From Gammaproteobacteria bacterium (GTDB taxonomy: Bacteria > Pseudomonadota > Gammaproteobacteria > HK1), in the NCBI GenBank assembly GCA_041581935.1, contig JBFICP010000001.1, positions 1 through 40,544 on the forward strand: a stretch of DNA of 40,544 bases. The letters run 5' to 3'. Under the pieces are notes generated by a model that made no database searches, had not been told where the DNA came from, and saw nothing but the letters and a program-made list of their open reading frames with translations. Within the stretch, counting starts at the first letter, position 1. Every line of letters begins with the position of its first letter. This document shows, piece after piece, positions 5,154 to 35,249 of this stretch. A program made the position numbers and the translations under genes.

Positions 5154-5193
5154 ATCCTCAGTCTCACCTGGCTTCGATCAAAGAAGCCGAGCC

Positions 5194-5207
5194 GAGCGAA
5201 GCCCGAC
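5194..5207. repeat. Partial copy of a REP-like intergenic core (gagcgaagcccgac)
   Basis: The 14-mer differs at one base from gagcaaagcccgac at 23012..23025. It lies in the 71-nt spacer between two minus-strand genes, next to a small hairpin ggcttc/gaagcc (5170..5188). Confidence 0.4.
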
Positions 5208-5224
5208 ATTCGACCGTTGCGCGA

Positions 5225-6103: not shown

Positions 6104-6150
6104 GCAGAAGTGCTCGTTACGTTAATATATTTTGAACGAACGTTGTTCAC

Positions 6151-6753: not shown

Positions 6754-6816
6754 CATTGACCCGTAAATCGGTCTTGGCACGGCGACACTCGACCTACGGT
6801 AAAAAGCAATTCCGGA

Positions 6817-7227: not shown

Positions 7228-7239
7228 GAAATTGCTCCT

Positions 7240-8625: not shown

Positions 8626-8644
8626 TGCAGTCCTCTCCGGGGCG

Positions 8645-9490: not shown

Positions 9491-10413
9491 ACTTTGACCT
9501 CCCCTTCGTAGGGATCGTAGGTGTCGATCTCGTGGGGAAAGATGCTTCTGATGGCGACCTCTTCCGAGGCCAGCGCAACGAAATCATCGCTCTCATACAA
9601 GACCATGGGTTTTGCGGCCATGACGTCCTTGGCCATTCCGAGCTTGTCGCCAGTTGCCACCACGTAGGTAAACACGCCGTCAAGCTCATGAATGGATTGC
9701 TGCATGGCTTCCTCGAGCTCCTCTCCGCGATCGATAGCATCGGCGAGATACACGGCGATGAGCTCGGAGTCGCAGTTGGACATGAAGCGGTGACCGCGGC
9801 GCTCGAGTGCGCGACGCTTGCCCCAGTAGTTGGTCAGCTGGCCGTTGTGCACCACCGACACGTCGTTGAACGGATATGCCCAGTAAGGATGTGCGGATCG
9901 AATATCGACATCGGATTCCGTCGCCATGCGAGTGTGGCCGATGGCATGGGTGCCCTGGAAATCGTCGAGACCATACTGCTTGGATACGCGATTGGCGTCT
10001 CCGAGATCCTTGATGAGTTCGAGCGCGTGACCAATCGAGAGAATCTCCGCGCCGTCGACGTCCTCGATATAGTCCGCCAGCCGTTTCAGATCGCCGTCGA
10101 AGCTGAAAACATACCGATGGGCATATTCGGTAACCTGCTCCTCGGATTCGATGCGGGCGCCCAGCTCCTTCATGCGATTATCGACGGTCGCCTTGCGTTC
10201 CTTCATCTGGCGTACGATGTCGAAACCTTTCTTGATGTCTTCCTGCTCGGCCACCTTGAAACGCATGACGTGCTTGTCCGCCATCGGATTGCCGTACAGC
10301 GCAAATCCGCTGGAGTCGGGACCGCGATGCTTGAGCGACTGAAGCATCGCGGTCAACTCCCCGCCGATATTTGCGCTCTTTCCCTTGTGAATCAGTCCGG
10401 CTATTCCGCACAT
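9478..10413 (-). CDS. Class II (Ntn) glutamine amidotransferase-like protein (MgsA/GlxB-like)
   Basis: 311 aa. It starts MCGIAGL (Cys directly after Met, the Ntn nucleophile). Also present: HRGPDSSGFALYG, HTRMATESDV, VVHNGQLTNYW, CDSELIAVYL. Confidence 0.9.
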   Translation of the reverse strand: MCGIAGLIHKGKSANIGGELTAMLQSLKHRGPDSSGFALYGNPMADKHVMRFKVAEQEDIKKGFDIVRQMKERKATVDNRMKELGARIESEEQVTEYAHRYVFSFDGDLKRLADYIEDVDGAEILSIGHALELIKDLGDANRVSKQYGLDDFQGTHAIGHTRMATESDVDIRSAHPYWAYPFNDVSVVHNGQLTNYWGKRRALERRGHRFMSNCDSELIAVYLADAIDRGEELEEAMQQSIHELDGVFTYVVATGDKLGMAKDVMAAKPMVLYESDDFVALASEEVAIRSIFPHEIDTYDPYEGEVKVWQS

Positions 10414-10482
10414 GGATAAACACTCCTGGTCAATTTCAGGCCGCCCATAGGCTGCATTGACGATCGCCTGTCCTGACGATTG

Positions 10483-11955: not shown

Positions 11956-12033
11956 TTTCTTCTCCTCCTGGCGCCGATCATCGACATCGGCTTCGTTCAA
12001 TCGTCCGCCGGGTATTCCCGACTCTGTTGTTCT

Positions 12034-13377
12034 TCAGCTCCAAGGGAATGGGCTGTGAGACACCGGGTGGAGCTTTCCCTCGGCGTAACGCGAAAAACGA
12101 AACGGCTTCAGCAATTCGCTGCTGGAGCCGCAGATCTCAGCGGCGACCAGCTTGCCGACTCCGATCATCTTGTAGCCGTGATTCGAATCTGCGATCACGT
12201 AGCAGTTTTCTCGAAACACGTCGAACACCGGAAAGCTGTCCGGCGTGAACGCGCCGATACCACCGGACGGCTCGTTTTTGTATTTGCCGATTTGGCCCGA
12301 AAACCGCTCCTGACAGTGCGCCAGCGCCGAGCACCACATGTGTGCGAACCAATCGTCGACGACATAGTCCGGGGACTCGGTGCCGTAAGGGTCCACCTTT
12401 ACGTCGTCTGGCGGCGTGGTGATCTTATTGGGTGCCGCGCCGCCCTGGATGCCGCCGAAATGGAAATCCGGCTTGTAGTAGATACCCCACATCTGCTCGG
12501 TGATGAGCGATCCATCCACATCCGAAACAAGCGGTGCATCGCTGTCTACGTGGATGACGGGCGGGAAATCGCCATCGTTGGTCCTCTGCAGTCCCGGATC
12601 AACCCCCAAGGTGCCTTCCTGCAGCGACCAGAAGACCCACATGGGAATATCATCGTGCATGGTCCCGTCCGATCCTTTGATGCTGACCTTGCGCGGCAGC
12701 TCGAGCATGTCCCAGAGGCTCTTTACCCAGGGTCCGGCGGCCACGACGACGTAGTCGCATTCGATTGGGCCGCGATCGGTTTGCACGGCGCGGATCGCGT
12801 CACTCGCGTCGGCACTGACGAATCCCGTGACCCGTGCGCCGGTCAGAATCCGAACGCCTTCCGCTTCCGCCTTGTCGGCGAGTCCGTAAAGGCTGCTGGT
12901 ATTGTTGGCGTAGCCGCCGCGCTTCTCGTGCAGAACCGAAGTGATCCCCTCGGCCCGCCAATCGTGGAACAGACGGCGCATGTACTCGGACGATGCCTTG
13001 GCGCCTTCGACGAAAACCGATTCGTAGTCGATGTCCCTCTGCTGGTCGGCGATTCCGGCGACGTCTTCGCGCATGCATTCGGGACTTATCTGCATGTAGC
13101 CGACGGGATGATAGTGGTAGGTTTCCGCGTCGCTCTCCCAGACCGAGACACTGTGTGCCATGAGCTCGCGCATAGCCGGCTGGAAGTAATTGTTACGAAC
13201 CACGCCGCAGGCGATTCCCGAGGCCCCGGCGCCGATGGAGGTCTTGTCGACCACCAGAACGTCCTCGCCACTGCCGCGGCCACGGGACTTGAGCTCCCGG
13301 GCAAGATGCAACGCGGTGCTGAGACCGTGGATACCGGCGCCGATGATCAGATACTTGGCGTGGGTCGGAAATGCCAT
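12034..13377 (-). CDS. FAD-dependent oxidoreductase (DAO / sarcosine-oxidase-beta-like family)
   Basis: KYLIIGAGIHGLSTALHLAR...VLVVDKTSIGAGASGIACGVVRNNY is the typical DAO N-terminus. ATG 13377 (MAFPTHAK) places the GxGxxG at the N-terminus. The track ORF extends to 13431. Confidence 0.85.
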   Translation of the reverse strand: MAFPTHAKYLIIGAGIHGLSTALHLARELKSRGRGSGEDVLVVDKTSIGAGASGIACGVVRNNYFQPAMRELMAHSVSVWESDAETYHYHPVGYMQISPECMREDVAGIADQQRDIDYESVFVEGAKASSEYMRRLFHDWRAEGITSVLHEKRGGYANNTSSLYGLADKAEAEGVRILTGARVTGFVSADASDAIRAVQTDRGPIECDYVVVAAGPWVKSLWDMLELPRKVSIKGSDGTMHDDIPMWVFWSLQEGTLGVDPGLQRTNDGDFPPVIHVDSDAPLVSDVDGSLITEQMWGIYYKPDFHFGGIQGGAAPNKITTPPDDVKVDPYGTESPDYVVDDWFAHMWCSALAHCQERFSGQIGKYKNEPSGGIGAFTPDSFPVFDVFRENCYVIADSNHGYKMIGVGKLVAAEICGSSSELLKPFRFSRYAEGKLHPVSHSPFPWS

Positions 13378-13557
13378 CGAAGTTATCCTGTATAGACCAA
13401 ATTGAGGCCGGAAGTTCTTCCGAGGCGCCATGGCCCTCAGGTTGTCGCGACCTGCCCGTCAACCATCGCCGTGTCGACTCGGTCGCGAAATTACAGTTTC
13501 AGTCGCTCGGTTGCGGCTTGCGGCGCGTTTACGGTAGCGGGTATATTCAAACCGGCT

Positions 13558-22101: not shown

Positions 22102-22845
22102 ATGTTGGAAAATAGAGAAGGCAAGCGTGTGCCGAAAACGACTTTCCGAGTGCGACGTGGCCATGATTGGGTCGATGTCACGACCGATGAGCTCTTCGCG
22201 GGCAAAACCGTGGTGGTGTTCGCGCTGCCGGGCGCTTTCACGCCGACGTGCTCATCATCCCACGTGCCCCGCTACAATCAGCTCGCCCCGCAGCTTCGCG
22301 CGCACGGCGTGGACGATATTGTTTGCATTTCGGTGAACGACTCATTCGTTATGAACGAGTGGCAGACGTCCCAGAAAGCCGACGAGATTCGCTTCATACC
22401 CGACGGCAACGGCGCTTTCACGAACGGCATGGGCATGCTCGTAGACAAGGAAGAGCTCGGCTTCGGCAAGCGGTCGTGGCGCTACTCAATGCTGGTGAGG
22501 GACGGCGTCATCGAGAAAATGTTCATCGAGCCCGAAGTCCCCGGCGATCCCTTCGAAGTATCGGATGCCGACACCATGCTCGCCTACGTGGCGCCCGATG
22601 CTCCCATGCCCATGGACGTGACGGTTATGTCGCGAGACGGTTGTCCGCACTGCGTGCGAGCGAAGGAGTTGCTGCGAAACGCAGGGATCGATTTCGAAGA
22701 GCTGGTTCTCAATCGCGACTACACGGATCGCTCATTGCGCGCCGTCGCCGCGAGCGCGAGCGTTCCGCAGGTGTTCGTGAACGGCGACCACATCGGCGGG
22801 GCCGATGCGCTCGAGTCCTGGTTGGCCGAAAGAAAGGCCGCTTGA
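22102..22845 (+). CDS. Hybrid peroxiredoxin (Prx5-type) - glutaredoxin fusion
   Basis: The N-terminal [17 protein letters not shown] carries the peroxidatic Cys motif. The C-terminal domain has CPHC and [13 protein letters not shown] (Grx). The architecture matches the known Prx-Grx hybrid of Haemophilus. Confidence 0.9.
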
Positions 22846-22895: not shown

Positions 22896-23029
22896 GTAGG
22901 TTGGGCTGAGCCCATGAGTCCAGGGGCGAACCCGTTAGAGCGAAGCAGGCCGAGACTGTTCTCAAAAGCCATCCGCATTCTCGCCATCCATGGCGGTCGG
23001 GCACCCGAGTCGAGCAAAGCCCGACCTAC
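22896..23029. repeat. REP-like intergenic palindromic units
   Basis: gtaggttgggctgagccca (22896..22914) and gtcgggc-N16-gcccgac-ctac (22996..23029). The GGTTGGGC core recurs in the palindrome at 31874..31932, and the gagcRaagcccgac core recurs at 5194..5207. Confidence 0.55.
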
Positions 23030-23523
23030 GGAACTGGCGAGAGCACGACGGCGTGGCCGGCGTCCGGCGGCGTTGACACGGTGAACACGGCTGTCTCGGG
23101 CGTATACGGATTCGTGATATCGACGAACGCCGCCCAATCGCGGCGGTACTCGAGATAGTCGACGAGCCGGCCTCGATGGAGAAATACGATGACCGTGAGC
23201 AGGTCGTCCGCGATGAGCTTCTCACGGGTCTCCCGCGACCAGTCCCACTGGAACGGACAGTCGGCGACCGCACCGCCGGGCTTGTAGTTAACAAGAATCT
23301 CGGCTTGGTCCCAATCGAAGCCGGTGATACGCGACAAGCGCACGGGGTCGGCGCCCTCAACACCCGCATCGATGGCCGCGCGCAGCGCCTCGCGCAGCTC
23401 GGCGTGGCTGCGGCAGCTCTTGTAGGTCGTGATGAAGTGATACCCGAGGCCGAGAGTCAGCACGATCGCCGAGATATACAGCACCGGCCGCGTCGGCAAT
23501 CCGGCCAATGCGTCCTTCAACAT
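23026..23523 (-). CDS. Hypothetical membrane-anchored protein (one N-terminal TM)
   Basis: 165 aa. The N-terminal helix is PVLYISAIVLTLGLGYHFI. The rest is soluble with no motif I recognise. Confidence 0.55.
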   Translation of the reverse strand: MLKDALAGLPTRPVLYISAIVLTLGLGYHFITTYKSCRSHAELREALRAAIDAGVEGADPVRLSRITGFDWDQAEILVNYKPGGAVADCPFQWDWSRETREKLIADDLLTVIVFLHRGRLVDYLEYRRDWAAFVDITNPYTPETAVFTVSTPPDAGHAVVLSPVP

Positions 23524-23543
23524 ACGGCGTTCGATATGTAGCT

Positions 23544-23584
23544 AGAAGAAAGAACCCTCGCCGACGCGGAATCGCCGGCGAGGG
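23544..23584 (-). terminator. Rho-independent terminator of the amt / small-ORF operon
   Basis: On the minus strand a 9-bp GC-rich stem (ccctcgccg / cggcgaggg; plus-strand 23555..23563 and 23576..23584) is followed by TTCTTTCTTCT (plus-strand 23544..23554). It starts 19 nt after the stop of the 77-aa ORF. Confidence 0.6.
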
Positions 23585-23602
23585 GTGCTGCTTGGTATTT
23601 AC

Positions 23603-23836
23603 CTATGGATTTTCAGGCCTTTCACCGCTGATGATCTTTCTCAACGATTCGGCGCCGCCGAAGCGCTTCACCTCCTCTTCGTAGGTCTTGTTCTCGCGCC
23701 TCGTCTCCACGACATGCCACCAGATCCAGAACGCCAGGCCCAAGATGAACCAGAGCATTTCCGTGCCGACGAAGGGATACATCGGACCGATATCGGTGAT
23801 GGTGCCGGCCCAGTTTTCGAAGCTACCCGTAGACAT
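23603..23836 (-). CDS. Small (77-aa) single-pass membrane protein co-transcribed with the ammonium transporter
   Basis: It starts 12 nt downstream of the amt stop. It has one Trp-rich TM (MLWFILGLAFWIWWHVV) followed by a charged tail (ETRRENKTYEEEVKRFGG). Confidence 0.6.
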   Translation of the reverse strand: MSTGSFENWAGTITDIGPMYPFVGTEMLWFILGLAFWIWWHVVETRRENKTYEEEVKRFGGAESLRKIISGERPENP

Positions 23837-23848
23837 ATGCGTTCCTCC

Positions 23849-25252
23849 TCAATCTGCGCCCGCGCGAGCACCGACGGCCTCGCTCTCTGCGTTGATGATG
23901 CCCTGCTCGTCGGCGAAGCGTTCCGCGTTGGCCCCGACGTCGAGACCGGCGAGCTCCACTTCCTTGGGAATACGCAGCAAGCCGGCAGCATTCAGAATCT
24001 TTGCCGTGACCCAGCCCGGCAGGAATCCCAGCACCCAGAACATGATCACGGCGCCGATGAACTGACCCCACGGGGTAATGACGGCGAACGAGGGGTCCGG
24101 CGAGGACGGGTATCCCCACAGGAATATTCCGGCGATGAATACACCGAAACAGCCCGCGTACCCGTGCACGGCCACCGCGCCGACGGCATCGTCGATCTTG
24201 AATCTCTTCTCCACGAAATAGTGGACCTTGTACATGAAGATCACGCCACCCGCGGCGATGAACATCGCCTGTATCGGATGATACAAATCGTTGCCCGCCG
24301 ATGCGGCGATGATGCCTGCGAGACCCGATGAGTAGGTCCAGAACGCATCGCCTTTGGACACGATGTAACCCATCAGGAGCCCTCCCGAGAGCGACATCAG
24401 GAAGTTGACGGTGATCGCGGACAGCGTGGTTGGCGCGAGATAAATATTGGTCGCCGAGAAGAACACGCCGTCGCCGTCCTGGATATCCCACATGGGCACG
24501 TTGCACGCCACATAGAATCCCCAGAATCCCGTATAAATGAGAAACAGACCGATGGTCACCAGCCAGGGATTGCGCGGATGGATGTTGCGCGGGGTACCGT
24601 CGGCGGCGAATTTGCCGATGCGCGGTCCCAGCACGAACAGGATTCCGAGGGCATACCCGCCGGCGATGGCGTGAATGACACCCGATGCGTAGGCATCGTG
24701 ATAACCGAGCTTTTGCACCATCCAGCCCGCCGAGTGCCAGCCCCAGGCGGCGTCGATAATCCACCACACCGAGCCGATGCCGACCGCCAGAATCCAGAAG
24801 CCGGTCGACTTGATGCGCTCGATCACCGAGCCCGAGACGATGGACGCCGCGGTCCAGGAGAACAGCAGGAATGCCGCCCAGAAAACGCCGTTGATACGCG
24901 CCCATCCGGCCGTGTCATCGGCGGTCAGCGCCTCGGTCGCCGGGGTGCCGCCCATGTGCGGGCCCATGAGCTCGCTCCAGGCCACCGCCCACGGAGCAGA
25001 CTCGATGCCGCCGGTGATGCCGGGGCCGTTTGGGAAGGCGAAATAGATCCACCATCCGAAGAAGAAGAACGTGATTGTCACCAACGGGATGAGCATGGTG
25101 TTCTTCATCAGCGTGTGCATGTGATTCTTGTGCCGGCTGGCACCGACCTCGTACATGCAAAAGCCGACGTGGATGAAGAACATGATCACCACCGTCAACC
25201 AGTAGTAGAACTCGGTAAAGAGTATTCCGAGTGCGGTTAGTTCATTGTCCAT
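23849..25252 (-). CDS. amt: Ammonium transporter (Amt/MEP family)
   Basis: 467 aa, about 11 TM. Amt-type contexts: HVGFCMYEVGASRHKNHMHTLMKN, ASGVIHAIAGGYALG, DDAVGAVAVHGYAGCFGV (both pore His contexts are present). Confidence 0.9.
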   Translation of the reverse strand: MDNELTALGILFTEFYYWLTVVIMFFIHVGFCMYEVGASRHKNHMHTLMKNTMLIPLVTITFFFFGWWIYFAFPNGPGITGGIESAPWAVAWSELMGPHMGGTPATEALTADDTAGWARINGVFWAAFLLFSWTAASIVSGSVIERIKSTGFWILAVGIGSVWWIIDAAWGWHSAGWMVQKLGYHDAYASGVIHAIAGGYALGILFVLGPRIGKFAADGTPRNIHPRNPWLVTIGLFLIYTGFWGFYVACNVPMWDIQDGDGVFFSATNIYLAPTTLSAITVNFLMSLSGGLLMGYIVSKGDAFWTYSSGLAGIIAASAGNDLYHPIQAMFIAAGGVIFMYKVHYFVEKRFKIDDAVGAVAVHGYAGCFGVFIAGIFLWGYPSSPDPSFAVITPWGQFIGAVIMFWVLGFLPGWVTAKILNAAGLLRIPKEVELAGLDVGANAERFADEQGIINAESEAVGARAGAD

Positions 25253-25624
25253 TCTCTACCTCCCCTCCGGTCGCTTTTTGCTTGATTGCCCCGCAGGCCC
25301 AAACCCCCTGGCCTCGCGGGCACGCACGCTCGAGCGGCTTCCCGTCACGTCCGACGACGTGATTGTTTATCTCGGGAAACTTGAGAAGTGAACGCGGATG
25401 AGGAACGCAACGAACGAAACGCGAGCGGGCAGCAACGGGGAACGTCCGAAAACCCCCGCATGGATGTGTCCCCCCGACGCGAAGTTGTCGCGGTTCTCAT
25501 CTTCCCCCGATTTCCTCCTCGATGATTCGCGCGTGCAACACGAACCAACAGAGGATTAATATACTGGAAATTCTTTCCCAATGTGCAACAAATATTCAAC
25601 ACACGACAGGATCGGTCGGCACTA

Positions 25625-26284
25625 ATGGCTCCCAAGACTTTGAAAGAAAAGGGCTCCGGCACGCCAGGCGCTCCGACCACACGGCGCGTACAGGGAGCGG
25701 CGCCCGCCAATCAGCTGGAGATCGCCATCGGTCAGCAGGTGCGCGCATTTCGCAAGCAGCTGAGCATGACCGTGGCGGAGGTCGCCGGCCAGGCCGATCT
25801 GTCGCCGGGCATGCTGTCGAAAATCGAGAACGGTCTGACCTCGCCGTCACTGGCGACCTTGAAGGCGCTTTCCGGTGCGCTGAACGTTCCGGTCACGGCA
25901 TTTTTCCGAAAGTACGAGGAGGAACGCGATGCGACCTTCGTCAAGGCCGGTCAGGGGCTCAACATCGAGCGCCGCGGCACCCGCGCCGGCCATCAGTATC
26001 AGCTGCTGGGCCATACGGTGGGCAAGCAGGTGTTCGTTGAGCCGTACCTGATCACGTTGACCGAGGAGTCCGATGTCTTCCCGCTGTTTCAGCACGACGG
26101 GGTCGAGTTCATCTACATGCTGACCGGCGAGGTCATCTATCGCCACGCCAGCGAGACCTTCCGCCTGACCCCGGGGGATTCGTTGTTCTTCGACGCCGAT
26201 GCGCCCCACGGCCCGGAGGAGCTGGTGGACCTCCCGATTCGCTTTCTGGCCGTCATCGTCGAGCCCCGGGGCGCGGATTCGTGA
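25625..26284 (+). CDS. XRE-family HTH regulator with C-terminal cupin domain
   Basis: HTH: IGQQVRAFRKQLSMTVAEVAGQADLSPGMLSKIENG. Cupin: FQHDGVEFIYMLTGEVIY...GDSLFFDADAPHG. The start is at 25625 or 25583. Confidence 0.85.
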   Translation: MAPKTLKEKGSGTPGAPTTRRVQGAAPANQLEIAIGQQVRAFRKQLSMTVAEVAGQADLSPGMLSKIENGLTSPSLATLKALSGALNVPVTAFFRKYEEERDATFVKAGQGLNIERRGTRAGHQYQLLGHTVGKQVFVEPYLITLTEESDVFPLFQHDGVEFIYMLTGEVIYRHASETFRLTPGDSLFFDADAPHGPEELVDLPIRFLAVIVEPRGADS

Positions 26285-26426
26285 AATGGCCCATTAGGAA
26301 GGGGCTCATTCATGTGGGGAAAGTTTTTCTCTTGCAGGTTGATCCGGCCCGAGCGAGGGTTTACGCTCATCGGGCTCGGGAATTCGGTCCCATTGGCTCG
26401 AGCACAGTCGCTCACCAGGAGGCACC

Positions 26427-27338
26427 ATGTGTGGCATAGCCGGCATCATGTACAAGACCCGGGGCGCTCTGGGAGGCACCGGTCGGGCGCTCATCGACAT
26501 GCTCGACGGCTGCCAGCATCGCGGCCCCGACTCCACCGGATTCGCGCTCTACGGTGACGCCGCCGAAGACCGGCTGCGTCTGCGCTTCTTCGTCGGCGAA
26601 GGCGACGAGGCGGACACGGCCGTGGCGCGCATCAAGGAGCGCTTCGACGAGCACGGCGCCGCCATCGTCGAGGAGCAGCGGGTGGGCAACAACTACCGCT
26701 GCACCGTGAACTTCGACGGCGACCTGCAGAAGTTCGCCTACGCGATGGAGCACGCCGCCAAGGTGATCTCCATCGGCTCGAGCCTGGAGATCGTCAAGGA
26801 CGTCGGCAGCGCCCACGATGTTGACGATCGCTACGGCGTGCACACGCATCAAGGTACCCATGGACTCGGCCACGTGCGCCTCGCCACCGAGTCCGACGTC
26901 AAGCCCGAGGCGTCGCATCCCTTCTGGGCCACGGGCTTCGCCGATGTGGCCATCGTCCACAACGGCCAGATCACCAACTACTGGAAAATGCGCCGGCGGC
27001 TCGAACGACGCGGCTTCGAGTTCACCACCGACAACGACAGCGAGCTCATCGCAGTCTATCTCGCGGACAAGTTGTCCCAGGGCATCTCACTCAAAGACGC
27101 GTTGGCGACTTCCATCGACGATCTTGACGGCACGTTCTCGTTTCTGGTTTCCACCAAGGACGAGATCGGCTACGCCAAGGATCGTCTGGCGGCGAAACCC
27201 ATGATCATGTACGAGACCGACGATCTGATCGCCGTGGCTTCGGAAGAAGTGTCGCTGAATCGACTTTTTCCAGGCCAGGCGCTCAGCACCGTGGAGCCAC
27301 CACCGGGAACTTTTGATACGTGGTCACGATCGATCTAG
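26427..27338 (+). CDS. Class II (Ntn) glutamine amidotransferase-like protein (GlxB/MgsA-like), paralog of 9478..10413
   Basis: It starts MCGIAGIMYK and is preceded by AGGAGG. Motifs: HRGPDSTGFALYG, HVRLATESDV, IVHNGQITNYW, NDSELIAVYLAD. Confidence 0.9.
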   Translation: MCGIAGIMYKTRGALGGTGRALIDMLDGCQHRGPDSTGFALYGDAAEDRLRLRFFVGEGDEADTAVARIKERFDEHGAAIVEEQRVGNNYRCTVNFDGDLQKFAYAMEHAAKVISIGSSLEIVKDVGSAHDVDDRYGVHTHQGTHGLGHVRLATESDVKPEASHPFWATGFADVAIVHNGQITNYWKMRRRLERRGFEFTTDNDSELIAVYLADKLSQGISLKDALATSIDDLDGTFSFLVSTKDEIGYAKDRLAAKPMIMYETDDLIAVASEEVSLNRLFPGQALSTVEPPPGTFDTWSRSI

Positions 27339-29278
27339 CGAAAATCCGGGTTCGTGAAGCGAACGAGCTCATCCGCAAGCACGGAGCCGCGGGTGAGGAC
27401 GTCACCATCGTCAATCCCGATGCCCGCCATCACATCGGCGTGGGGCTCACCGACCCGATCAACGTGCACGTCAAGGGATCGGCCGGGTACTTCTGCGCGG
27501 GCCTGACCGATCGGGCGCGCTTCGAGGTCGATAACAACGTCGGCTGGGGGCTCGGCGACAACATGTACAGCGGATCGGTGGTGGTGCGTGGCAACGCCGG
27601 CGCCATCGCCGGCGTCGGCATCCGCGGCGCGGAGCTCGTGGTCCACGGCAACATCGGCTCGCGCGCCGGCCAGGTCATGAAAGAGGGCACGCTCGCCTGT
27701 GCCGGCAATGCCAACTTCATGGCCGGCTACATGATGTACGGCGGGCGTATCATTATTCTCGGGCATTCCGGCGAGCGCGTCGGCGAGGACATGACCGGCG
27801 GCACCATATTCGTCGGCGGCGACGTGCAGTCGCTGGGCTCGGATGCCGAGCAGGTCGATATCGAGGACGCCGAAAAGGAATCGATCCTGGAGTTTCTCGA
27901 TCGTTACCAGATCAAGCACCGCGGAACGTTCAGCAAGATCGTCAATGCCGGCAAGAAGCTGCGTTACGGCTCCGCGGAGCGCCAGATGCGCAGCCTTCCC
28001 TTCTTCGGCTTCTCCGGCACCTCCGAGTACTGGAACCCGAAGGTCCAGGAGGACATCCACATCAAGGCCCAGAGCGGGCGCTACCGCATTCGCGGCTACG
28101 GCGGCGCGCGGCCGTTGCCGCATGTGGCCGATCTGGCGTTCAAGAAGGACCTCTCCGGGGCGGGGCGCGACCCCGACGTGATCTCCAAGGTTCGGATGTA
28201 CACCGAGATCGGCGGCATCAACGGCGCCGAGCCCCTGAAGCTCAGCATGCCGGTGATGATCGCGCCCATGAGCTACGGGGCGCTCAGCCGATCCACCAAG
28301 CAGGCGGTGGCCATGGCCTCGGCGATGTCGAAAATCGCCGAGAACACCGGCGAGGGCGGCATGAGCGACGCGCAACGCGACGCCGCCGGGCAGCTCATCT
28401 TTCAGTGCCTCGGCGGACGGCTGGGCTGGAACATCCACGACATGAAGCGCGCCGACGGCCTGGAGATCTACATCTCCCAGGGCGCCAAGCCGGGACTCGG
28501 CGGCCAGCTCATGGCCAAGAAAGTCACCAAGGAGCTCGCGGCGATCCGCGGAATCCCCCACGGCATTGATCTCCGCTCGCCCTCGCGGCACCCGGACATC
28601 CTCGGCGCCGACGATCTGGTCATCAAGATCGAGGAGTTTCGCGAAGCCACCGGCTACCGGTTGCCGGTGAGCGTGAAGCTCGGTGCCGGGCGCGTGCGCG
28701 ACGATATCAAGATCGCGGTCAAGGACGGTTTCGACTTCGTCGAGCTGGACGGCATGCAGGGCTCGACCGGCGCCGGCAGCGGCGAGGTCATCGACTTCGT
28801 CGGTATTCCGACGCTCGCGGCGATCATGGAAGCGTTGGACGCGCTCGAGGAGATCGGGCGTCGCGACGACATCGAGATCGTGCTGATGGGCGGGCTGCGC
28901 GACGGCGTCGACGCGGTGAAGGCGCTGTGCCTGGGCGCGGACGCCGCCGCATTCGGCACCTCGGTCATCATCGCCGGCGGCTGCATCGCCTGCATGCAGT
29001 GCCACGTGGGCCAGTGCGTCACCGGAATCGCGACCCAGGACCCGGAGCACGAGAAGCGCTACAAGCCCAACGTCGAGGCGGAGAACATCCACCGGTTTTT
29101 GGAAGGCGTACGCTGGCAGATTGCCGCCATCACCCAGGGGCTCGGTTACGACGATGTGCGCGCGCTCAATCGGGACGATCTGGTGGCGCTGACACCGGAG
29201 GCGGCCGCCATCACGCGCTTGCCTTACGCGCCGGAGTACCGCAAGCGCAATCCGGAGCTCTCGGTGCAGGCGGGCTGA
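27320..29278 (+). CDS. Fusion protein: GXGXG domain + FMN-binding glutamate-synthase domain (GlxD+GlxC-like)
   Basis: 652 aa. The N-terminal half carries GXGXG repeats (GSAGYFCAGL...GNAGAIAGVGIRGAELVVHGNIGSRAG...GHSGERVGEDMTGGTIFVGG). The C-terminal half carries IAPMSYGALS, TGEGGM, SQGAKPGLGGQLMAKKVT, DGMQGSTGAGS, GGLRDGVDAVKALCLGADA, CIACMQCHVGQCVTGIATQDP. The GTG start overlaps the upstream gene by 19 nt. Confidence 0.9.
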   Translation: MVTIDLAKIRVREANELIRKHGAAGEDVTIVNPDARHHIGVGLTDPINVHVKGSAGYFCAGLTDRARFEVDNNVGWGLGDNMYSGSVVVRGNAGAIAGVGIRGAELVVHGNIGSRAGQVMKEGTLACAGNANFMAGYMMYGGRIIILGHSGERVGEDMTGGTIFVGGDVQSLGSDAEQVDIEDAEKESILEFLDRYQIKHRGTFSKIVNAGKKLRYGSAERQMRSLPFFGFSGTSEYWNPKVQEDIHIKAQSGRYRIRGYGGARPLPHVADLAFKKDLSGAGRDPDVISKVRMYTEIGGINGAEPLKLSMPVMIAPMSYGALSRSTKQAVAMASAMSKIAENTGEGGMSDAQRDAAGQLIFQCLGGRLGWNIHDMKRADGLEIYISQGAKPGLGGQLMAKKVTKELAAIRGIPHGIDLRSPSRHPDILGADDLVIKIEEFREATGYRLPVSVKLGAGRVRDDIKIAVKDGFDFVELDGMQGSTGAGSGEVIDFVGIPTLAAIMEALDALEEIGRRDDIEIVLMGGLRDGVDAVKALCLGADAAAFGTSVIIAGGCIACMQCHVGQCVTGIATQDPEHEKRYKPNVEAENIHRFLEGVRWQIAAITQGLGYDDVRALNRDDLVALTPEAAAITRLPYAPEYRKRNPELSVQAG

Positions 29279-29279
29279 C

Positions 29280-31823
29280 GTGGCCGTCTACGATATCAAC
29301 CGCATTCTCGTGCCGAAGGCGCCGCCCGAGTACCGAGACGATACCGCCGACATACATTACGTGCCGGCGCCCTGTCAGGTGGCGTGCCCAGTCGGCACCG
29401 ACGCGCCTTCCTATCTCGCCTACATCTGGGAAGGCAAGTACGAGGAGGCCTTCGAGGCCATCACGGCGACCAATCCGTTCAGCTCCATCTGCGGGCGCGT
29501 ATGCGACGCGCCGTGTGAGCCCGCCTGCCGGCGGACTTCCGCGGACGGCGCCGTGCAGATCCGCAATCTCAAACGCTTTGTCATGGACAAGGTGGGCCAT
29601 CGGTACGATCCGCCCGCCATACCCGTGACCAAGTCCCAGAGCGTGGGCATCGTCGGCGCGGGCCCCGCGGGACTGGTCGCTGCACACGATTTGTGCGCGG
29701 CGGGCTACTCGGTGGATGTTTACGAAATGACCGATCGGCCGGGCGGCATGATGGTGTGGGGCATTCCCGCGTTTCGCCTGCCGCCGGGCATCATCGAGGA
29801 AGATATCCAGCGCCTCCGGCAGCGTTGCCCGGGGCTCACCATGCACTTCTCGACGGCGCTCGGACGCGACATGAGCCTCGATGAATTGAAGCAGCGCCAC
29901 GACGCGGTGTTGCTCACCATCGGCTCCTGGTGGGGCAAGACCATGGGCATTCCCGGCGAGGACGACGAACGTGTCGTCGACGGCGTCGGATTCCTGAGGC
30001 GCGTGAACGCCGGTGAACGTCCGGAGCTTCCCGAGACAGTGGTCGTTGTCGGCGGCGGCGATGTCGCCATGGACGCCTGCCGTGTCGCCAAGCGCCTGCC
30101 CGGCTGCAAGACCGTCAAGGTGATCTACCGGCGCGGACCCGACGAGATCCCCGCGCGGCGCATCGAGCTCGAAGGCGCCGTCAAGGAGGGCATCGAGTTC
30201 GTCTACAACACCCAGCAGGTGTCGGTGGCCGCGCACGGCAATCAGCTCAGTCTTCGTTGCGTGCGCACCGAGGCCGGCGAGCCCGGCGAGGATGGCCGGC
30301 GAAGGCCGGTGATCGTGCCGGACAGCGAGCACGACATCGCCTGCGGCATGGTCATCGCCGCGGTCGGCCAGCAGGCCGAGTGTGAAGAGCTCGATCGGCG
30401 CGGCATGATGAGACCCGATCGTGTGCGCGCGGAATTCGATCGCATGCGCACCGATGACGCGAAAGTCTTCGCGGCCGGCGACGGGGCCTTCGGGGGATCC
30501 ACCATCGTCATGGCCATGAGTCATGGCCAGCGCGCGGCCTACTACGTCAAGGCGTTCCTGGAGGGGCGCGACGAACCGATGCCCTATCGAACACCCTATC
30601 GCACGCGGCGCGTGCCGGTGGCCCAGGATCTGCTGTGGGAAAAGCTGCCGGTGCAGGAACCCGAATTTTTCGGCCTCGGTAAAAACCCCATCGAATTTCC
30701 GGAGATCGAATCGACCTACGACGAGGAGACGGCACGCAAGGAAGCAGCACGCTGTTACCGCTGCGATGCGGAGACCGGATCCGCCGATTACTCGGTGCGT
30801 CATCGCGAGGATCTGTTCTCCATGGCGCGCACCAACGTGGTCGATCACGTCAAGCACAAGGCGATGCTGGATCGCCGCCTGCGACTGCGGGAAAACCCGT
30901 TTCCCGAGGGTCGTGCACCGAGCCTCGACGATTTGATATTCCTGCCTGCCAACCTGTCGCGCCTGGTGATCGACCCGTACCGCGAAGCGTGCCGGATCAG
31001 CACCGATCTCGGGGGCAAGCTGGATCTCGAGATGCCGTATCTGGCGACCGGATTCGACGACGCACCGACGGATGTGCGCATCGCCGTGGCCACGGCGCTA
31101 GCCACCCTCGGTTTGAGCTACGTGGGCAAGCGCACCATCGATGAGCGCGCCGACGGCCGCGTGCCCTGGCTGCAGCTCGTCGTGCCCGGCGAGTCCGATC
31201 CGAGCGCCTCGGCGAAAGCGCTTGTGCACGTGCAGAAGTCCGTCTTTCAACCACCGGCGCTGACTCGCCTGCACGCGGATCAGCTGCTGGGTATGGCGGT
31301 CTCATCCACCGAAATTCTCGAGCAGTGCATCGTCCATGCCCTGGAGCACGAATTCGACATGCTGCTGCTCGACGCCACGCGTGGAATCGAGGGACGCTGG
31401 CCGGAGCTCTCGGGGACGCCGAATCCGAGCATACTCCGTGACGCCATCGCCATTCTCCGGCGCCTGGGGCAGGAGGAGGAAATCGACCTGGTGTATTTCG
31501 GCGGCGTGCGCTCGGGCACCGATTCCGCCAAGCTCATCGCGCTCGGCGTCAAGGCGGTGGTGCTGGGCACGGCGCTCGGAATCGCCGCGGGCGGGGCCAT
31601 CTCCGCTGGTGCCAACCTCGAGTTCGCACCGGACTGGAGCGAGGAAGAGCGCAGCGGCGGCATCGTCAATATCGTCAACGCCAGCGCCGGCGAAGCCTCG
31701 ATGATGGCGCGCTGCACCGGCAAAACGAATCTGCACAACCTCGAGCCGGAGGACCTGCGCGCGATCACCATCGCGACCTCGCAGGCGATCGGCGTGCCGC
31801 TGACCGGACTGCGCCCGGCGTAG
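29280..31823 (+). CDS. Fusion protein: GltD-like Fe-S/FAD/NAD(P)H oxidoreductase + C-terminal degenerate glutamate-synthase-like TIM-barrel domain
   Basis: 847 aa. The N-terminal Cys clusters are PCQVACPVGTD and CGRVCDAPCEPACRR. Also present: VGIVGAGPAGLVAAHDL...DRPGGMMVWGIPAFRLP, VVVVGGGDVAMDACR, VFAAGDGAFGG. The C-terminal third aligns by eye to the FMN-domain proteins (LIFLPANLSRLVIDPYRE..., FGGVRSGTDSAKLIALGVKAVVLG, MMARCTGKTNLHNLEPEDL). It lacks their MSxGALS and GSTGAG strings. The GTG start lies 1 nt after the upstream stop. Confidence 0.8.
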   Translation: MAVYDINRILVPKAPPEYRDDTADIHYVPAPCQVACPVGTDAPSYLAYIWEGKYEEAFEAITATNPFSSICGRVCDAPCEPACRRTSADGAVQIRNLKRFVMDKVGHRYDPPAIPVTKSQSVGIVGAGPAGLVAAHDLCAAGYSVDVYEMTDRPGGMMVWGIPAFRLPPGIIEEDIQRLRQRCPGLTMHFSTALGRDMSLDELKQRHDAVLLTIGSWWGKTMGIPGEDDERVVDGVGFLRRVNAGERPELPETVVVVGGGDVAMDACRVAKRLPGCKTVKVIYRRGPDEIPARRIELEGAVKEGIEFVYNTQQVSVAAHGNQLSLRCVRTEAGEPGEDGRRRPVIVPDSEHDIACGMVIAAVGQQAECEELDRRGMMRPDRVRAEFDRMRTDDAKVFAAGDGAFGGSTIVMAMSHGQRAAYYVKAFLEGRDEPMPYRTPYRTRRVPVAQDLLWEKLPVQEPEFFGLGKNPIEFPEIESTYDEETARKEAARCYRCDAETGSADYSVRHREDLFSMARTNVVDHVKHKAMLDRRLRLRENPFPEGRAPSLDDLIFLPANLSRLVIDPYREACRISTDLGGKLDLEMPYLATGFDDAPTDVRIAVATALATLGLSYVGKRTIDERADGRVPWLQLVVPGESDPSASAKALVHVQKSVFQPPALTRLHADQLLGMAVSSTEILEQCIVHALEHEFDMLLLDATRGIEGRWPELSGTPNPSILRDAIAILRRLGQEEEIDLVYFGGVRSGTDSAKLIALGVKAVVLGTALGIAAGGAISAGANLEFAPDWSEEERSGGIVNIVNASAGEASMMARCTGKTNLHNLEPEDLRAITIATSQAIGVPLTGLRPA

Positions 31824-31873
31824 AGCGTTTTCGGGGAATCCGATATTCTCTCGCGGGCAGGGGAATTCGATCC

Positions 31874-31932
31874 TGTAGCAGCACCGTCGGTTGGGCTTGG
31901 CTGCGCTTCGCCCAACCGACGGTGCTCCTACA
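31874..31932. repeat. 59-nt REP-like palindrome between the gltD-like fusion and the GS gene
   Basis: The perfect 16-bp arms are gcaccgtcggttgggc (31881..31896) and gcccaaccgacggtgc (31910..31925). They are extended by tgtag/ctaca with one mismatch. The element shares the GGTTGGGC core with 22896..22914. Confidence 0.75.
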
Positions 31933-31965
31933 TGAGAAAATCAAAAAACGAATGGGAGGTTCACC

Positions 31966-33273
31966 ATGGCCGTTGATCTCGACAAGATCGCGAAATCCGA
32001 GGGCATAAAGTACTTTCTCATCAGCTTCGTCGACCTGTTCGGCGTTCTGCGCTCGAAGCTCGTTCCGGCGCGCGCCATCGCCCAGATGCAGGCCGACGGC
32101 GCGGGATTCGCGGGATTCGCCGCATGGCTGGATATGACCCCGGCCGACCCGGACATGTTCTCCATTCCCGATCCGGAGAGTCTCATTCAGCTGCCCTGGA
32201 AACCGGAGGTCGCGTGGCTTGCCGGGGATCTGTGGATGGACGGCAAACCGGTGGAGGCATCGCCCCGCATCGCACTCAAGCGCCAAATCGAGAAGGCCGC
32301 GGGGCAGGATCTCTACATGAAATCCGGTGTCGAGTGCGAGTACTTTCTGGTCAATTCAGACGGCACTGCGATTTCCGACGATCGTGATATTCAGGAGAAG
32401 CCCTGTTACGACCAGGCGGCGCTCATGCGCCGCTACGACGTCATCAGCGAAATTTGTGATTGCATGATCGAGCTTGGCTGGAATCCCTACCAGAATGACC
32501 ACGAGGACGCTAATGGTCAGTTCGAAATGAACTGGGATTACACCGATACCCTGGTGACAACAGATCGCCATGTGTTCTTCAAGTACATGGTGAAATCGAT
32601 TGCCGAGAAACACGGACTGCGAGCGACTTTCATGCCGAAACCGTTTCCGAATCTTACCGGCAACGGCTGTCACGCCCATGTATCGGTGTGGGACAAGTCG
32701 GGAAGCGTGAACAAATTTTCCGATGACAGCGACGAGATGGGCCTATCGAAGCTTGCGTATCAGTTCCTTGGCGGCGTGCTGCACAATGCCGACGCGCTTG
32801 CAGCAATCTTCAATCCCAGTGTCAATAGCTACAAGCGCATCGATGCGACGGTGACGCTCTCCGGCGCCACCTGGTCGCCCAATGCCATTAGCTATTCCGG
32901 AAACAATCGCACACACATGGTTCGAATTCCGGATCCCGGCCGCTTCGAGCTACGCTTGATGGACGGCGCTGCCAATCCGTACCTGCTGCAGGCCGGTGTC
33001 CTGGCCGCGGGTTTGGACGGTATCGCTAACGCAAGGGATCCGGGCGAGCGGCTGGACATCAACATGTACACAGAAGGACAAAGGCTGCGGCGAATCCGCC
33101 GGCTTCCCTTGAACATGCTCGATGCCGTACGCCTGTTCGACAAGAGCAAGGTTCTACGCGAAGCCTTCGGTGATGAGCTCATCAGCAGCTATGTGAAGCT
33201 CAAGCTCAAGGAGTGGCAAAGCTACTCGACCACCATTACCCCATGGGAGCGCGACCATACGCTCGATGCTTGA
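31966..33273 (+). CDS. Glutamine synthetase family protein, GlnT (rhizobial type-III nomenclature) / GmaS-like, 435 aa
   Basis: Motifs: NDHEDANGQFEMNW, MPKPFPNLTGNGCHAHVSVW, NPSVNSYKRI, GNNRTHMVRIP, DGAANPYL. A GGGAGG SD is present. The size matches GlnT/GmaS-type enzymes. Confidence 0.9.
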   Translation: MAVDLDKIAKSEGIKYFLISFVDLFGVLRSKLVPARAIAQMQADGAGFAGFAAWLDMTPADPDMFSIPDPESLIQLPWKPEVAWLAGDLWMDGKPVEASPRIALKRQIEKAAGQDLYMKSGVECEYFLVNSDGTAISDDRDIQEKPCYDQAALMRRYDVISEICDCMIELGWNPYQNDHEDANGQFEMNWDYTDTLVTTDRHVFFKYMVKSIAEKHGLRATFMPKPFPNLTGNGCHAHVSVWDKSGSVNKFSDDSDEMGLSKLAYQFLGGVLHNADALAAIFNPSVNSYKRIDATVTLSGATWSPNAISYSGNNRTHMVRIPDPGRFELRLMDGAANPYLLQAGVLAAGLDGIANARDPGERLDINMYTEGQRLRRIRRLPLNMLDAVRLFDKSKVLREAFGDELISSYVKLKLKEWQSYSTTITPWERDHTLDA

Positions 33274-33316
33274 TCGCCGCCTGCGCAGCTCTGCAGGAGC
33301 GAGTTACCTTCCGGGA

Positions 33317-33793
33317 ATGAGCGCGCTCGCGAACCGGAGGCGTCGGTGTTCACGGGCAAGCGCGCTTTTACGACGCGTCTTCGTTAGTTGCGCGCTAATG
33401 ATACTCGCGAGCTGCGGAACGATTTACGTCAATCCGGCGGACCGCAATCCGAAGTATCTCAAGGAGACCGATTTCATTTCCAGCCGAAACACGGAAATGA
33501 CCTATCGACGCATCTACACCATGCTGTACCGGTGCACGAGTGGTTACTATCGTATTCGGGGCAACTACGACCCGGATGCACGGCACGCGGAGATTTCGGT
33601 GGACACGGGCGTCGGATTCCAGAACGACCTCTATTTTGCGGATTCCCACGTGATGCGCATCGTTATCGACGCCGACGGACTCGAAAAGAGCACGGTACAA
33701 ATCAAACAGACGAGTCGCCACGGCGCGCCGTTCGCGAACGCCATGGCACAGTGGGTGAACGAAGGCAGCGACGACTGCGCTGCCGGATCCTAG
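33317..33793 (+). CDS. Putative lipoprotein, unknown function
   Basis: A basic N-terminus is followed by a hydrophobic stretch and the lipobox ILASC-G (ALMILASCGTIY). The start is uncertain (the track ORF begins at 33266). Confidence 0.55.
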   Translation: MSALANRRRRCSRASALLRRVFVSCALMILASCGTIYVNPADRNPKYLKETDFISSRNTEMTYRRIYTMLYRCTSGYYRIRGNYDPDARHAEISVDTGVGFQNDLYFADSHVMRIVIDADGLEKSTVQIKQTSRHGAPFANAMAQWVNEGSDDCAAGS

Positions 33794-34149
33794 CGGGAAG
33801 ACTTGCGTTTGCCGTTCGACGAGGAGCTGGAGCTCCTTCCGTCTCTACCCAGCTTCTTCAGCTTAGACTGAAGCTGGTCGATGGTCTGCATGTTCTCACC
33901 GTAGGCTCTGACGAGCTGTCGCGTGAGATCGGACAGCCCCTTGATCGCGATGGTCAGGTCGTCCTTTCTCGCGTTGACCAGGTCGATCTGCATGAGGACC
34001 AGGCCAGCCACGTCCTCGGGGCGCGAAACGATCCGCGGTTGCTGAGCGGCGGCTGCCTGGTCGGCGGCGGCGCCCGGGGGCGGCGTGGCCCTGGAGCCCG
34101 GATTCTGGTCATCTCTCGTGCTGGCCGATTCCTGAGTGCCTTTGGTCAT
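33790..34149 (-). CDS. Hypothetical protein with a Pro/Ala-rich N-terminus, a predicted coiled-coil core and a Ser/Lys/Arg-rich tail
   Basis: 119 aa. It contains ...LVNARKDDLTIAIKGLSDLTRQLVRAYGENMQTIDQLQSKLKKLG...SSSSSNGKRKSSR. I recognise no family. It is convergent with the lipoprotein gene, overlapping by 4 nt. Confidence 0.45.
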   Translation of the reverse strand: MTKGTQESASTRDDQNPGSRATPPPGAAADQAAAAQQPRIVSRPEDVAGLVLMQIDLVNARKDDLTIAIKGLSDLTRQLVRAYGENMQTIDQLQSKLKKLGRDGRSSSSSSNGKRKSSR

Positions 34150-34484
34150 GGCTCGTGCGTCCTTAGATGGTGGGTTCGGAAACGGTCCCTACGCACCGCT
34201 TCGACATGTCCTTTATCGGCCGGATCCCGGGATAGTTTAGCCATCCGAGGCCCCGGCACGGCCCCGAGCCGCGGGCGAGGGCCGCGATCGGCTCACCCGG
34301 CGTGCGGGGGGTGCGCGATTCGCCCGGTTCGCGCGGTGGAGGTGTCCCGAGCGTGACGGAGTCGGCAATTTGCGTGCTTCCGGGGCGTCAATCGTCACAG
34401 CGGTGTAGCGCCCAAGGTTTAAGGAATGCCGGATCCGGCCGATACTCCTTTTAGGAATTTAGTTAACCGCCAGAGGGGTGAGCC

Positions 34485-35249
34485 ATGGCTTACGCCATCC
34501 CCAAGATACCGGCTTCGGACAAGGAACCGCCGGCCGAAGCAGGAGAAGAGGCCCCGAATACCCGGGATGCCGATAGGCGGCACGTTGCCTGGCTGCAGCT
34601 GCACCCTGAAAAACGCGGCGCGGACCCCTATCGCTACGTCCTGCTTCTGCGCTTCACCCTTCTGAATCTGTTCGGCTTCGGCCTCCTGGGCGCGGCCTAT
34701 GCCCACGGGCTCGTGGCCATGGCTCTGGAAGCCGATCGGACCTATCTGTCGCTGGTCATCTTCCTGGTGTTTCTCGTCGGGCTGGGCTTATCGGCCCACA
34801 AGGTCTGGCAGACCAGCCATGAGCTCAACAGCGTGCGCGACTTCGAATCCGGCGACGACTCTCCGGCGGCTCGCTACCTGGCCCCGATGCTGGACGGAGA
34901 CGCGGACAGCCGCGCCAACCTGGTCGGAGCCCTGCGAATGAAGATTGCCCACCGCACCGCGGTGGTGCGCCACATTGCCAACAGCCTGGTTCTGCTAGGA
35001 CTGATCGGCACGGTGGTCGGCTTCATCATTGCGCTCGGCGGCGTCGATCCCGAGCACGCATCCGATGTGAAAGCCATTGCGCCCATGGTATCGACGTTGA
35101 TTCAGGGCATGTCGACGGCACTCTACACGACTCTTATCGGCGCCGTGCTCAATGTCTGGCTGATGGCGAATCACCAGGTTCTCGCTGGCGGCACCGTGAA
35201 GCTGATCACGGCACTGGTGGAAATGGCGGAGATCCATGCGCGAGATTGA
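34485..35249 (+). CDS. MotA/TolQ/ExbB-family proton-channel protein
   Basis: 254 aa. The family signature in the C-terminal helices is NSLVLLGLIGTVVGFIIAL...LIQGMSTALYTTLIGAVLNVWLMA. N-terminal TM helices are present. A GAGGGG SD is present. Confidence 0.85.
   Translation: MAYAIPKIPASDKEPPAEAGEEAPNTRDADRRHVAWLQLHPEKRGADPYRYVLLLRFTLLNLFGFGLLGAAYAHGLVAMALEADRTYLSLVIFLVFLVGLGLSAHKVWQTSHELNSVRDFESGDDSPAARYLAPMLDGDADSRANLVGALRMKIAHRTAVVRHIANSLVLLGLIGTVVGFIIALGGVDPEHASDVKAIAPMVSTLIQGMSTALYTTLIGAVLNVWLMANHQVLAGGTVKLITALVEMAEIHARD

Follow-up and report, generated by a model that had tools for sequence, protein, structure and literature searches.

A conserved amidotransferase, synthase and reductase cassette linked to gmaS: a candidate methylamine counterpart of the GS/GOGAT system

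Introduction

Methylamine is a widespread marine source of nitrogen and carbon, and gmaS is its marker gene. The conversion of gamma-glutamylmethylamide (GMA) to N-methylglutamate and the origin of the reducing equivalents are poorly defined. The closest described system is the gmaS-mgsABC cluster. The cluster on plasmid pPR2 of Rhizobium leguminosarum is of the methylated-amine/N-methylglutamate pathway type, and its glnT-glxBCD genes correspond to gmaS-mgsABC (PMC3160333, PMC13390433). Roseobacters transcribe gmaS together with canonical mgsABC (PMC13390433), and for the GmaS of Rhodovulum sp. 12E13 (RhGmaS) the Km is 27 uM with methylamine and 8.7 mM with NH4+ (PMC7948447). This study concerns an operon on a 40,544-nucleotide stretch of DNA (contig JBFICP010000001.1, assembly GCA_041581935.1), hereafter the window, which is the entire 40.5-kb contig of a gammaproteobacterial metagenome-assembled genome that is 86% complete and has uncultured Gammaproteobacteria as its closest relatives. 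The operon (25625-33273) encodes, in order, an XRE-cupin regulator, an Ntn amidotransferase, a synthase joining a GXGXG beta-helix to a flavin mononucleotide (FMN) barrel, a GltD-like reductase fused to a second and catalytically stripped barrel, and a ligase resembling glutamine synthetase (GS). The three middle genes are referred to here as the cassette.

Gene content and order, their conservation, the cofactor motifs, the residue-level identity of the ligase as GmaS and the orthology of the regulator are the material of the argument. The reading that we favour, and hold at even confidence, is that GmaS and the cassette could be the methylamine analogue of the glutamine synthetase/glutamate synthase (GS/GOGAT) couple, in which GMA, 2-oxoglutarate and NAD(P)H would yield glutamate and N-methylglutamate. 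If true, a second, energetically different route, with direct reductive assimilation instead of ammonia release, would exist in hundreds of marine Alpha- and Gammaproteobacteria, most of them uncultured. The enzyme would then be a natural hybrid of GOGAT and N-methylglutamate synthase in which a pseudo-enzyme domain is reused for docking, and the annotations "glutamate synthase", "FAD-dependent oxidoreductase" and "type III glutamine synthetase" would wrongly imply a second ammonium-assimilation system.

A GmaS-type ligase paired with the cassette

The last gene of the operon (31966-33273, forward strand) is annotated as GlnT or type III GS and scores 670 bits, over a cut-off of 470, against TIGR03105, a model that is named "type III glutamate-ammonia ligase" yet covers GlnT/GmaS. 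Its product scores 643 bits against the structure of RhGmaS (7CQL), is about 70% identical to RhGmaS over the full length, and shares 64-67% identity with the GlnT proteins of Rhizobium (64%) and Methylobacterium. In the alignment to 7CQL, residues Y147, Q175, D177, E179, E186, N188 and K30' are conserved, and the protein carries the GmaS-specific Ala48', where GS has the ammonium-binding Asp50', and Trp300, where GS has the glutamate of the Glu-flap. All of the ATP, glutamate, Mg, methylamine-pocket and catalytic residues of RhGmaS are retained, their roles being those given in PMC7948447. Judged by these residues and identities, the operon's "GS" is a GmaS orthologue. An earlier reading of the DNA, made from the sequence only, had proposed an alternative GS/GOGAT system in the ammonium sense; a ligase with the methylamine pocket, and without the ammonium-binding aspartate, speaks against it.

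The association of gmaS with the cassette recurs. By a quick tree built on the fusion protein, at least six separate lineages have gmaS beside the cassette, the deepest branches among them, and two gene orders occur, which differ in whether the XRE gene stands upstream or separates the fusion gene from gmaS. In the two alphaproteobacterial clades without this adjacency, 5/5 complete genomes have a gmaS, 66-71% identical, at another site. In a sample of the same class, gmaS was found in 24 of 399 genomes (about 6%) and in three of five cassette carriers, being adjacent in all three; one carrier without it is only 80% complete, and its contig ends at the cassette. Because GmaS is paired with a cousin of GOGAT that has its own NADPH-type reductase, the system would be expected to place methylamine nitrogen reductively onto 2-oxoglutarate rather than to serve as a second ammonium GS/GOGAT.

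Conservation and distribution of the cassette

The core of the cassette consists of the Ntn amidotransferase, the GXGXG-FMN fusion and the GltD-like reductase fused to the stripped FMN barrel. Among 48 related loci, each from a species genome, these three genes stand in identical order in all 45 loci that reach upstream, the remaining three being contigs that begin within the fusion gene. As the order is the same in all 45, the arrangement is not a matter of chance. The sequence-only reading would have been refuted had the GltD-like gene not been conserved in orthologous operons; the fusion gene that carries it is present in 48/48 loci.

The carriers are nearly all marine Alpha- and Gammaproteobacteria, and metagenomes abound in full-length relatives of the 847-aa fusion protein, at 67-84% identity. 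Within the class, the cassette is rare and patchy: of 399 further genomes sampled, 5 have it, and three members of the same family are all without it. The plasmid collection yielded GltD-like parts only, with nothing related to the fusion protein over its full length, and the ESM Atlas returned for this protein only its own clusters and generic GltD and dihydropyrimidine dehydrogenase (DPD) families. No description of the cassette architecture was found in the literature on gmaS or mgs in combination with gltD or the small subunit. The homarine operon homABCDER (PMC13236597) was considered as a match and rejected on its unrelated gene content. Neighbours outside the core vary among the alphaproteobacterial loci (LarA, AFOR, an M20 peptidase, GlnE, an ABC transporter) and gave no functional lead. 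One alphaproteobacterial chromosome, OY763937.1, has the cassette twice, at sites about 1.6 Mb from each other, in opposite orientation and with identical fusion proteins.

The synthase and its reductase

The amidotransferase (26427-27338, forward strand) is a class II enzyme of MgsA/GlxB type. Its N-terminus reads M-C-G-I-A-G, with the catalytic Cys1 directly after the initiator Met, as in members of the GltBD family. It matches GATase_6/7, with no match to the GATase_2 of GltB type, and is 37-39% identical to the rhizobial and Methylobacterium MgsA proteins.

The synthase (27320-29278, forward strand; 652 aa) comprises a GXGXG beta-helix at residues 29-171 (PF01493, E 3e-16) and an FMN barrel at residues 304-610 (PF01645, E 2e-92). 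The barrel aligns to 1EA0, 2VDC and 7MFM with every catalytic motif of GltB: MSYGALS, NTGEGG, QGAKPGLGGQL, DGMQGSTGA, GGLRDG and C-x5-C-x4-C. The last of these, the [3Fe-4S] ligand set of GltB, sits inside a four-cysteine motif of the cassette, C-x2-C-x2-C-x4-C (C555, C558, C561 and C566; 28982-29017), whose cysteines were aligned by eye to C1102, C1108 and C1113 of Azospirillum GltB. All 20 cassette synthase homologues compared carry this motif. The MgsC proteins of Rhizobium and Methylobacterium have YDDWHEGKDPAG at this position, with no cysteines. The synthase barrel shares 48% identity with the barrel of a GXGXG-ferredoxin-FMN type, 39-40% with MgsC and 36% with the GltB of the same genome; on these comparisons the synthase is a lineage separate from MgsC.

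The reductase module occupies the first part of the 847-aa fusion protein (29280-31823, forward strand), namely 29280-30791. It contains a Fer4_20 region (E 4e-23), FAD and NAD(P)H Rossmann domains (Pyr_redox_2, E 2e-26) and an extension beyond the nucleotide domains. Its matches in the PDB are 9BOV (1.8e-88), NfnB 4YLF (2e-72) and GltD 2VDC_G (8e-61). Exactly eight cysteines are invariant in 27 of 27 homologues, six in the Fer4_20 region (32, 36, 71, 75, 79 and 83) and two forming a C-x2-C at 492-495 in the extension; they would be enough to ligate two [4Fe-4S] clusters. Homologues are on average 72-82% identical to the window's protein over this module. A YRR motif follows the second Rossmann strand and, by analogy with GltD, presumably indicates NADPH.

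Since the FMN domain retains the Fe-S cysteines of GltB that canonical MgsC is missing, a redox-active reaction of GOGAT type is supported. The sequence-only reading had argued for such a reaction from the GltD-like protein, and both these cysteines and the eight invariant ones of the reductase back that argument. It had also counted every module of NADPH-glutamate synthase as supplied. Every module is indeed present; the curated family scores are not reached, with 157 bits for the synthase against the GltB model NF008730 (cut-off 1047) and 191 bits for the reductase against the GOGAT small-subunit model TIGR01317 (cut-off 448). No operon protein matches PF04898, the central domain of GltB, with a model that finds the genome's GltB at 337 bits.

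The stripped barrel as a predicted docking module

The C-terminal part of the fusion protein (residues 505-847, about 340 aa; 30792-31823) belongs to a small family with 423 representatives among 1.8 billion proteins. Its AlphaFold2 (AF2) model is a complete FMN-type TIM barrel (pLDDT 89), which matches flavocytochrome b2, IPP isomerase II and GltB 819-1189 with Z of 20-22; by sequence it is a Glu_synthase paralogue nearest to MgsC-type barrels. It has lost the GMSxGALS, GEGG, QGAKPG and DGxxGGTGA motifs together with the Fe-S cysteines, and retains GGVRSGTD and conserved motifs at its N- and C-termini. Elsewhere the stripped barrel occurs in an all-in-one chain (P0128, 1486 aa), in a synthase fusion without GltD (P0129, 1031 aa) and as a stand-alone protein. 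It was also considered as an equivalent of the GltB central domain; with no PF04898 match and a structure that fits the GltB FMN domain (819-1189), this was reduced to a functional analogy only.

In the predicted complex of the stripped barrel with the GXGXG-FMN protein, the ipSAE is 0.81 (0.81-0.82 in three runs) against 0.00 for the best control. Of 80 solved complexes, 58 attain this ipSAE mark, as do 2 of 110 mismatched pairs; with own alignments used, these counts are rough only. At least 86% of the contacts are common to the runs, the partner has a pLDDT of at least 87, and the predicted interface joins the QGAKPG loop and the Fe-S motif region of the synthase to the invariant motifs of the barrel. 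This supports a docking of the reductase on the synthase through the stripped barrel, with the caveat that the prediction model may remember GltB's own domain packing.

The same domain invites another explanation, in which the enzyme runs in the oxidative direction, N-methylglutamate or glutamate being oxidised at FMN with electrons passing through Fe-S and FAD to NAD(P)+, or in which the C-terminal barrel binds FMN and carries out a second reaction as in DPD. The invariant GG-x-R-x-G-x-D phosphate-loop motif, the complete FMN-type fold and a GltD-plus-barrel architecture resembling DPD (1GT8, Z 14.5) all point that way. We consider it very improbable, given that the catalytic motifs listed above and the Fe-S cysteines have been lost, that the phosphate loop lies in the modelled synthase interface, and that an intact Cys1 amidotransferase would be without a role in a purely oxidative enzyme.

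Two further observations concern this barrel family. Cysteines C571 (YREAC) and C812 (MMARC) of the fusion protein, at about 30990 and 31713 in the window, are invariant in 27/27 homologues and are common to MgsC-type barrels, not to the cassette's own catalytic barrel. On a short contig (L076, 93-1401), a stand-alone 344-aa stripped barrel lies directly upstream of a SoxD gene.

Regulator, neighbourhood and competing readings

The operon opens with an XRE-type helix-turn-helix (HTH) and cupin transcriptional regulator (25625-26284, forward strand, ATG at 25625; HTH_3 E 3e-13, Cupin_2 E 3e-11). Over 189 aa it shares 64% identity with the HTH protein of the R. leguminosarum pPR2 glnT-glx cluster, which sits just upstream of the amidotransferase gene. 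The order on pPR2 is sox/mgd-like genes, the GlxA regulator, the XRE HTH protein, amidotransferase, GXGXG, FMN barrel, glnT, purU, an aminomethyltransferase gene, dmmABC and a tmm-like gene. With the gene order matching and the regulator so similar, the operon is syntenic with mgsABC-gmaS. The sequence-only reading had regarded the rhizobial glnT-glxBCD clusters as being of unknown function, a description that does not suit a cluster lying among sarcosine-oxidase-like (mgd), purU and dmm genes. Its ammonium GS/GOGAT is further disfavoured by a regulator orthologous to that of an N-methylglutamate cluster and by canonical GltB-GltD in the genome.

Divergent from the operon lies an Amt-family (methyl)ammonium transporter gene (23849-25252, reverse strand; PF00909, E 3e-51), whose product scores 165 bits against an NCBIfam amt cut-off of 343. 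Its orthologues, 67-91% identical, adjoin the cassette in two arrangements, in Gamma- and Alphaproteobacteria. Amt proteins transport methylammonium, and the neighbour is compatible with methylammonium uptake.

A sister form of the synthase ties its lineage to the demethylating step. On a JGI metagenome contig (3300037048; locus L073, 771-12779), P0129 unites GXGXG, FMN barrel and stripped barrel in one 1031-aa chain without GltD, and the gene order is soxB/D/A/G-like genes, XRE-cupin, amidotransferase, P0129 and a GS-like gene whose product is 38% identical to the window's GmaS. This locus therefore links the synthase lineage to N-methylglutamate dehydrogenase genes.

Several results weigh against the methylamine GS/GOGAT reading. 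P0129 has the four-cysteine Fe-S motif but no GltD module, and the cluster may therefore be independent of a reductase such as that of the cassette. The motifs of the FMN domain are equally GltB-like and MgsC-like, and glutamine, instead of GMA, may be the amide donor. In most related loci, those of two large alphaproteobacterial clades, gmaS does not adjoin the cassette. At E 1e-100, no orthologue of gmaS was found in one cassette carrier that is 94% complete (G366). Other MgsABC-like sets are present in alphaproteobacterial carrier genomes, and the cassette is thus not the sole candidate there. Within the window there are no mgdABCD or sox-like N-methylglutamate dehydrogenase genes, and two SoxD-type genes occur only on other small contigs of the genome; as the product would need such a dehydrogenase, the claim of the sequence-only reading that the operon is self-contained is doubtful. 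Finally, GlnT/Glx-type proteins of SAR11, another organism with another architecture, are not induced under nitrogen limitation (PMC3870248).

In G366 (L070, 13932-16333), the only well-assembled carrier without a gmaS orthologue, the cassette is followed by genes for a flavin reductase and a gamma-glutamyltranspeptidase, and this hints at another source of gamma-glutamyl amides.

These results bear differently on the two remaining alternatives. The first holds that the operon encodes a glutamine-dependent NAD(P)H glutamate synthase isoenzyme of rearranged parts, working with Amt and an ordinary GS, GmaS being a mere neighbour that consumes or regenerates glutamate. It gains from the full set of modules with their catalytic motifs, Fe-S ligands and GltD-type reductase, from the adjacent Amt gene in many loci, and from the loci and the G366 genome without a neighbouring or detectable gmaS, a GlnE gene being near in one alphaproteobacterial clade. 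We nevertheless judge it unlikely. Canonical GltB with its central domain, together with GltD, is present in the window's genome and in the five complete carrier genomes, all that were tested; the amidotransferase is of MgsA type and not GATase_2; the regulator and the GS are orthologous to genes of the N-methylglutamate pathway; gmaS adjoins the cassette in its several lineages; and the sister form stands within a sox/mgd cluster. The canonical genes likewise rule out the cassette as the genome's only GOGAT. A third Glu_synthase-family gene of the same genome, on another contig (C63; L063, 10496-12091), encodes a stand-alone 531-aa FMN-barrel protein and adjoins a malic enzyme gene and MFS transporter genes, with no amidotransferase or GXGXG partner.

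The second alternative is a redox-neutral N-methylglutamate synthase, converting glutamate and methylamine to N-methylglutamate and NH3, in which the GltD module primes or rescues the flavin, or links to another partner, and delivers no stoichiometric electrons. An operon position and order as in Rhizobium mgsABC-gmaS agree with it, as do the P0129-type proteins that keep the Fe-S motif beside mgd-like genes. It is opposed by the lack of Fe-S cysteines in MgsC of the validated type (Rhizobium, Methylobacterium) and by the strict conservation of the reductase, which would be a heavy cost for a repair role; we hold it to be decidedly unlikely.

Proposed mechanism

Returning to the methylamine GS/GOGAT reading, we propose tentatively, with slightly less than even confidence, that the cassette is an NAD(P)H-dependent gamma-glutamylmethylamide:2-oxoglutarate amidotransferase, a "methylamine GOGAT". 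This would be a new activity, forming with GmaS an ammonia-free cycle, and the dead barrel would tether the Fe-S chain of the reductase over the synthase. We infer that GMA, and not glutamine, is the substrate, and likewise which product forms, which way the electrons run and that NADPH is preferred.

The Amt-type transporter would supply methylammonium, and GmaS would ligate methylamine to glutamate with ATP to give GMA. The Cys1 amidotransferase of the three-protein iron-sulfur flavoenzyme would then hydrolyse GMA to glutamate and methylamine, and the amine would pass to the FMN barrel of the GXGXG-FMN protein, where it would form an imine with 2-oxoglutarate. Reduction of this imine would draw electrons from NAD(P)H through FAD and the two [4Fe-4S] clusters of the GltD-like module to the Fe-S site of the synthase and on to FMN, with N-methylglutamate and glutamate as products. 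Throughout, the stripped C-terminal barrel would anchor the reductase on the synthase. An unlinked enzyme of Sox/Mgd type would demethylate N-methylglutamate to glutamate, which would thus take up the methylamine nitrogen with no free ammonia being released, and the whole operon would be under the control of the XRE-cupin protein.

Operon layout and other features of the window

The five genes, their tight junctions and the Amt neighbour noted by the sequence-only reading all stand when checked against the open reading frames and the DNA. The amidotransferase and synthase genes overlap by 19 nt (GTG at 27320, TAG ending at 27338), and a single nucleotide separates the synthase gene (TGA ending at 29278) from the fusion gene (GTG at 29280). 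The 142-nt spacer upstream of gmaS contains a hairpin whose stem is about 22 bp long (31875-31931, forward strand), the folding energy of the full spacer being -60.4 kcal/mol (z -3.6). No T-run follows the hairpin, which, placed between the fusion gene and gmaS, could act in the processing or stability of the mRNA; its interpretation as a genome-wide REP element was not supported, the hairpin not being repeated elsewhere in the genome. A scan of 23000-34500 against Rfam gave no match at E 0.1 or better, and the promoter and terminator scan gave counts not above those of shuffles.

Elsewhere in the window, the reverse strand at 3843-13431 carries a second, unfused set of GS-like, amidotransferase, GXGXG and FMN-barrel genes between two DAO-type oxidases. 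At 22102-22845, Redoxin (peroxiredoxin-type) and glutaredoxin domains are fused in one 247-aa protein.

Comparison with known systems

The barrel most identical to that of the cassette outside its own lineage (48%) belongs to the GXGXG-ferredoxin-FMN fusions of the P0258 type, which we take to be relatives of the small "archaeal-type" GltB/GOGAT family. As in the cassette, GXGXG precedes the barrel and the motif reads C-x2-C-x2-C-x4-C-P; unlike the cassette, these fusions contain a 2x[4Fe-4S] ferredoxin insert and are without the stripped barrel and the reductase fusion. DPD and NfnB-type enzymes (1GT8, 4YLF, 9BOV) similarly join a GltD-like NAD(P)H-FAD-[4Fe-4S] module to an FMN-type TIM barrel. 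The difference from these enzymes is that the operon's barrel no longer has its own family's catalytic and Fe-S motifs and is predicted to dock on a separate catalytic barrel.

With GltB-GltD (EC 1.4.1.13; Azospirillum 1EA0/2VDC/6S6S), the operon shares the Ntn amidotransferase, the FMN barrel motifs, C-x5-C-x4-C and the GXGXG helix, and its reductase has the NAD(P)H/FAD domains and the ligands for two [4Fe-4S] clusters of GltD. It differs from GltB in being without PF04898, in having GATase_6/7 and not GATase_2, in placing GXGXG before the barrel and in the fourth cysteine of the Fe-S motif. From GltD it differs in the displacement of the first C-x2-C to 492-495 and in the extra stripped barrel. 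The partner sets the operon's GmaS apart from RhGmaS, as it follows a reductase-coupled cassette.

The nearest relatives in organisation are the gmaS-mgsABC clusters of R. leguminosarum pPR2, Methylobacterium sp. DM1 pLVM1 and Ruegeria pomeroyi, which share the order XRE regulator, amidotransferase, GXGXG, FMN barrel and GS-like ligase, with identities to the operon of 64% for the regulator, 64-67% for the ligase, 37-39% for the amidotransferase and 39-40% for the FMN barrel. The second cluster of the window (7240-12000) is closer to MgsC than the operon's synthase is, its barrel being 53% identical to that of Rhizobium and keeping C-x2-C-x4-C. The purified MgsABC enzyme is FMN-only. Unlike gmaS-mgsABC, the operon has no mgdABCD or dmm genes nearby, its GXGXG and FMN proteins (mgsB and mgsC) are fused, its FMN barrel has Fe-S cysteines, and a gene joining a GltD-like reductase to a stripped barrel is inserted before gmaS.

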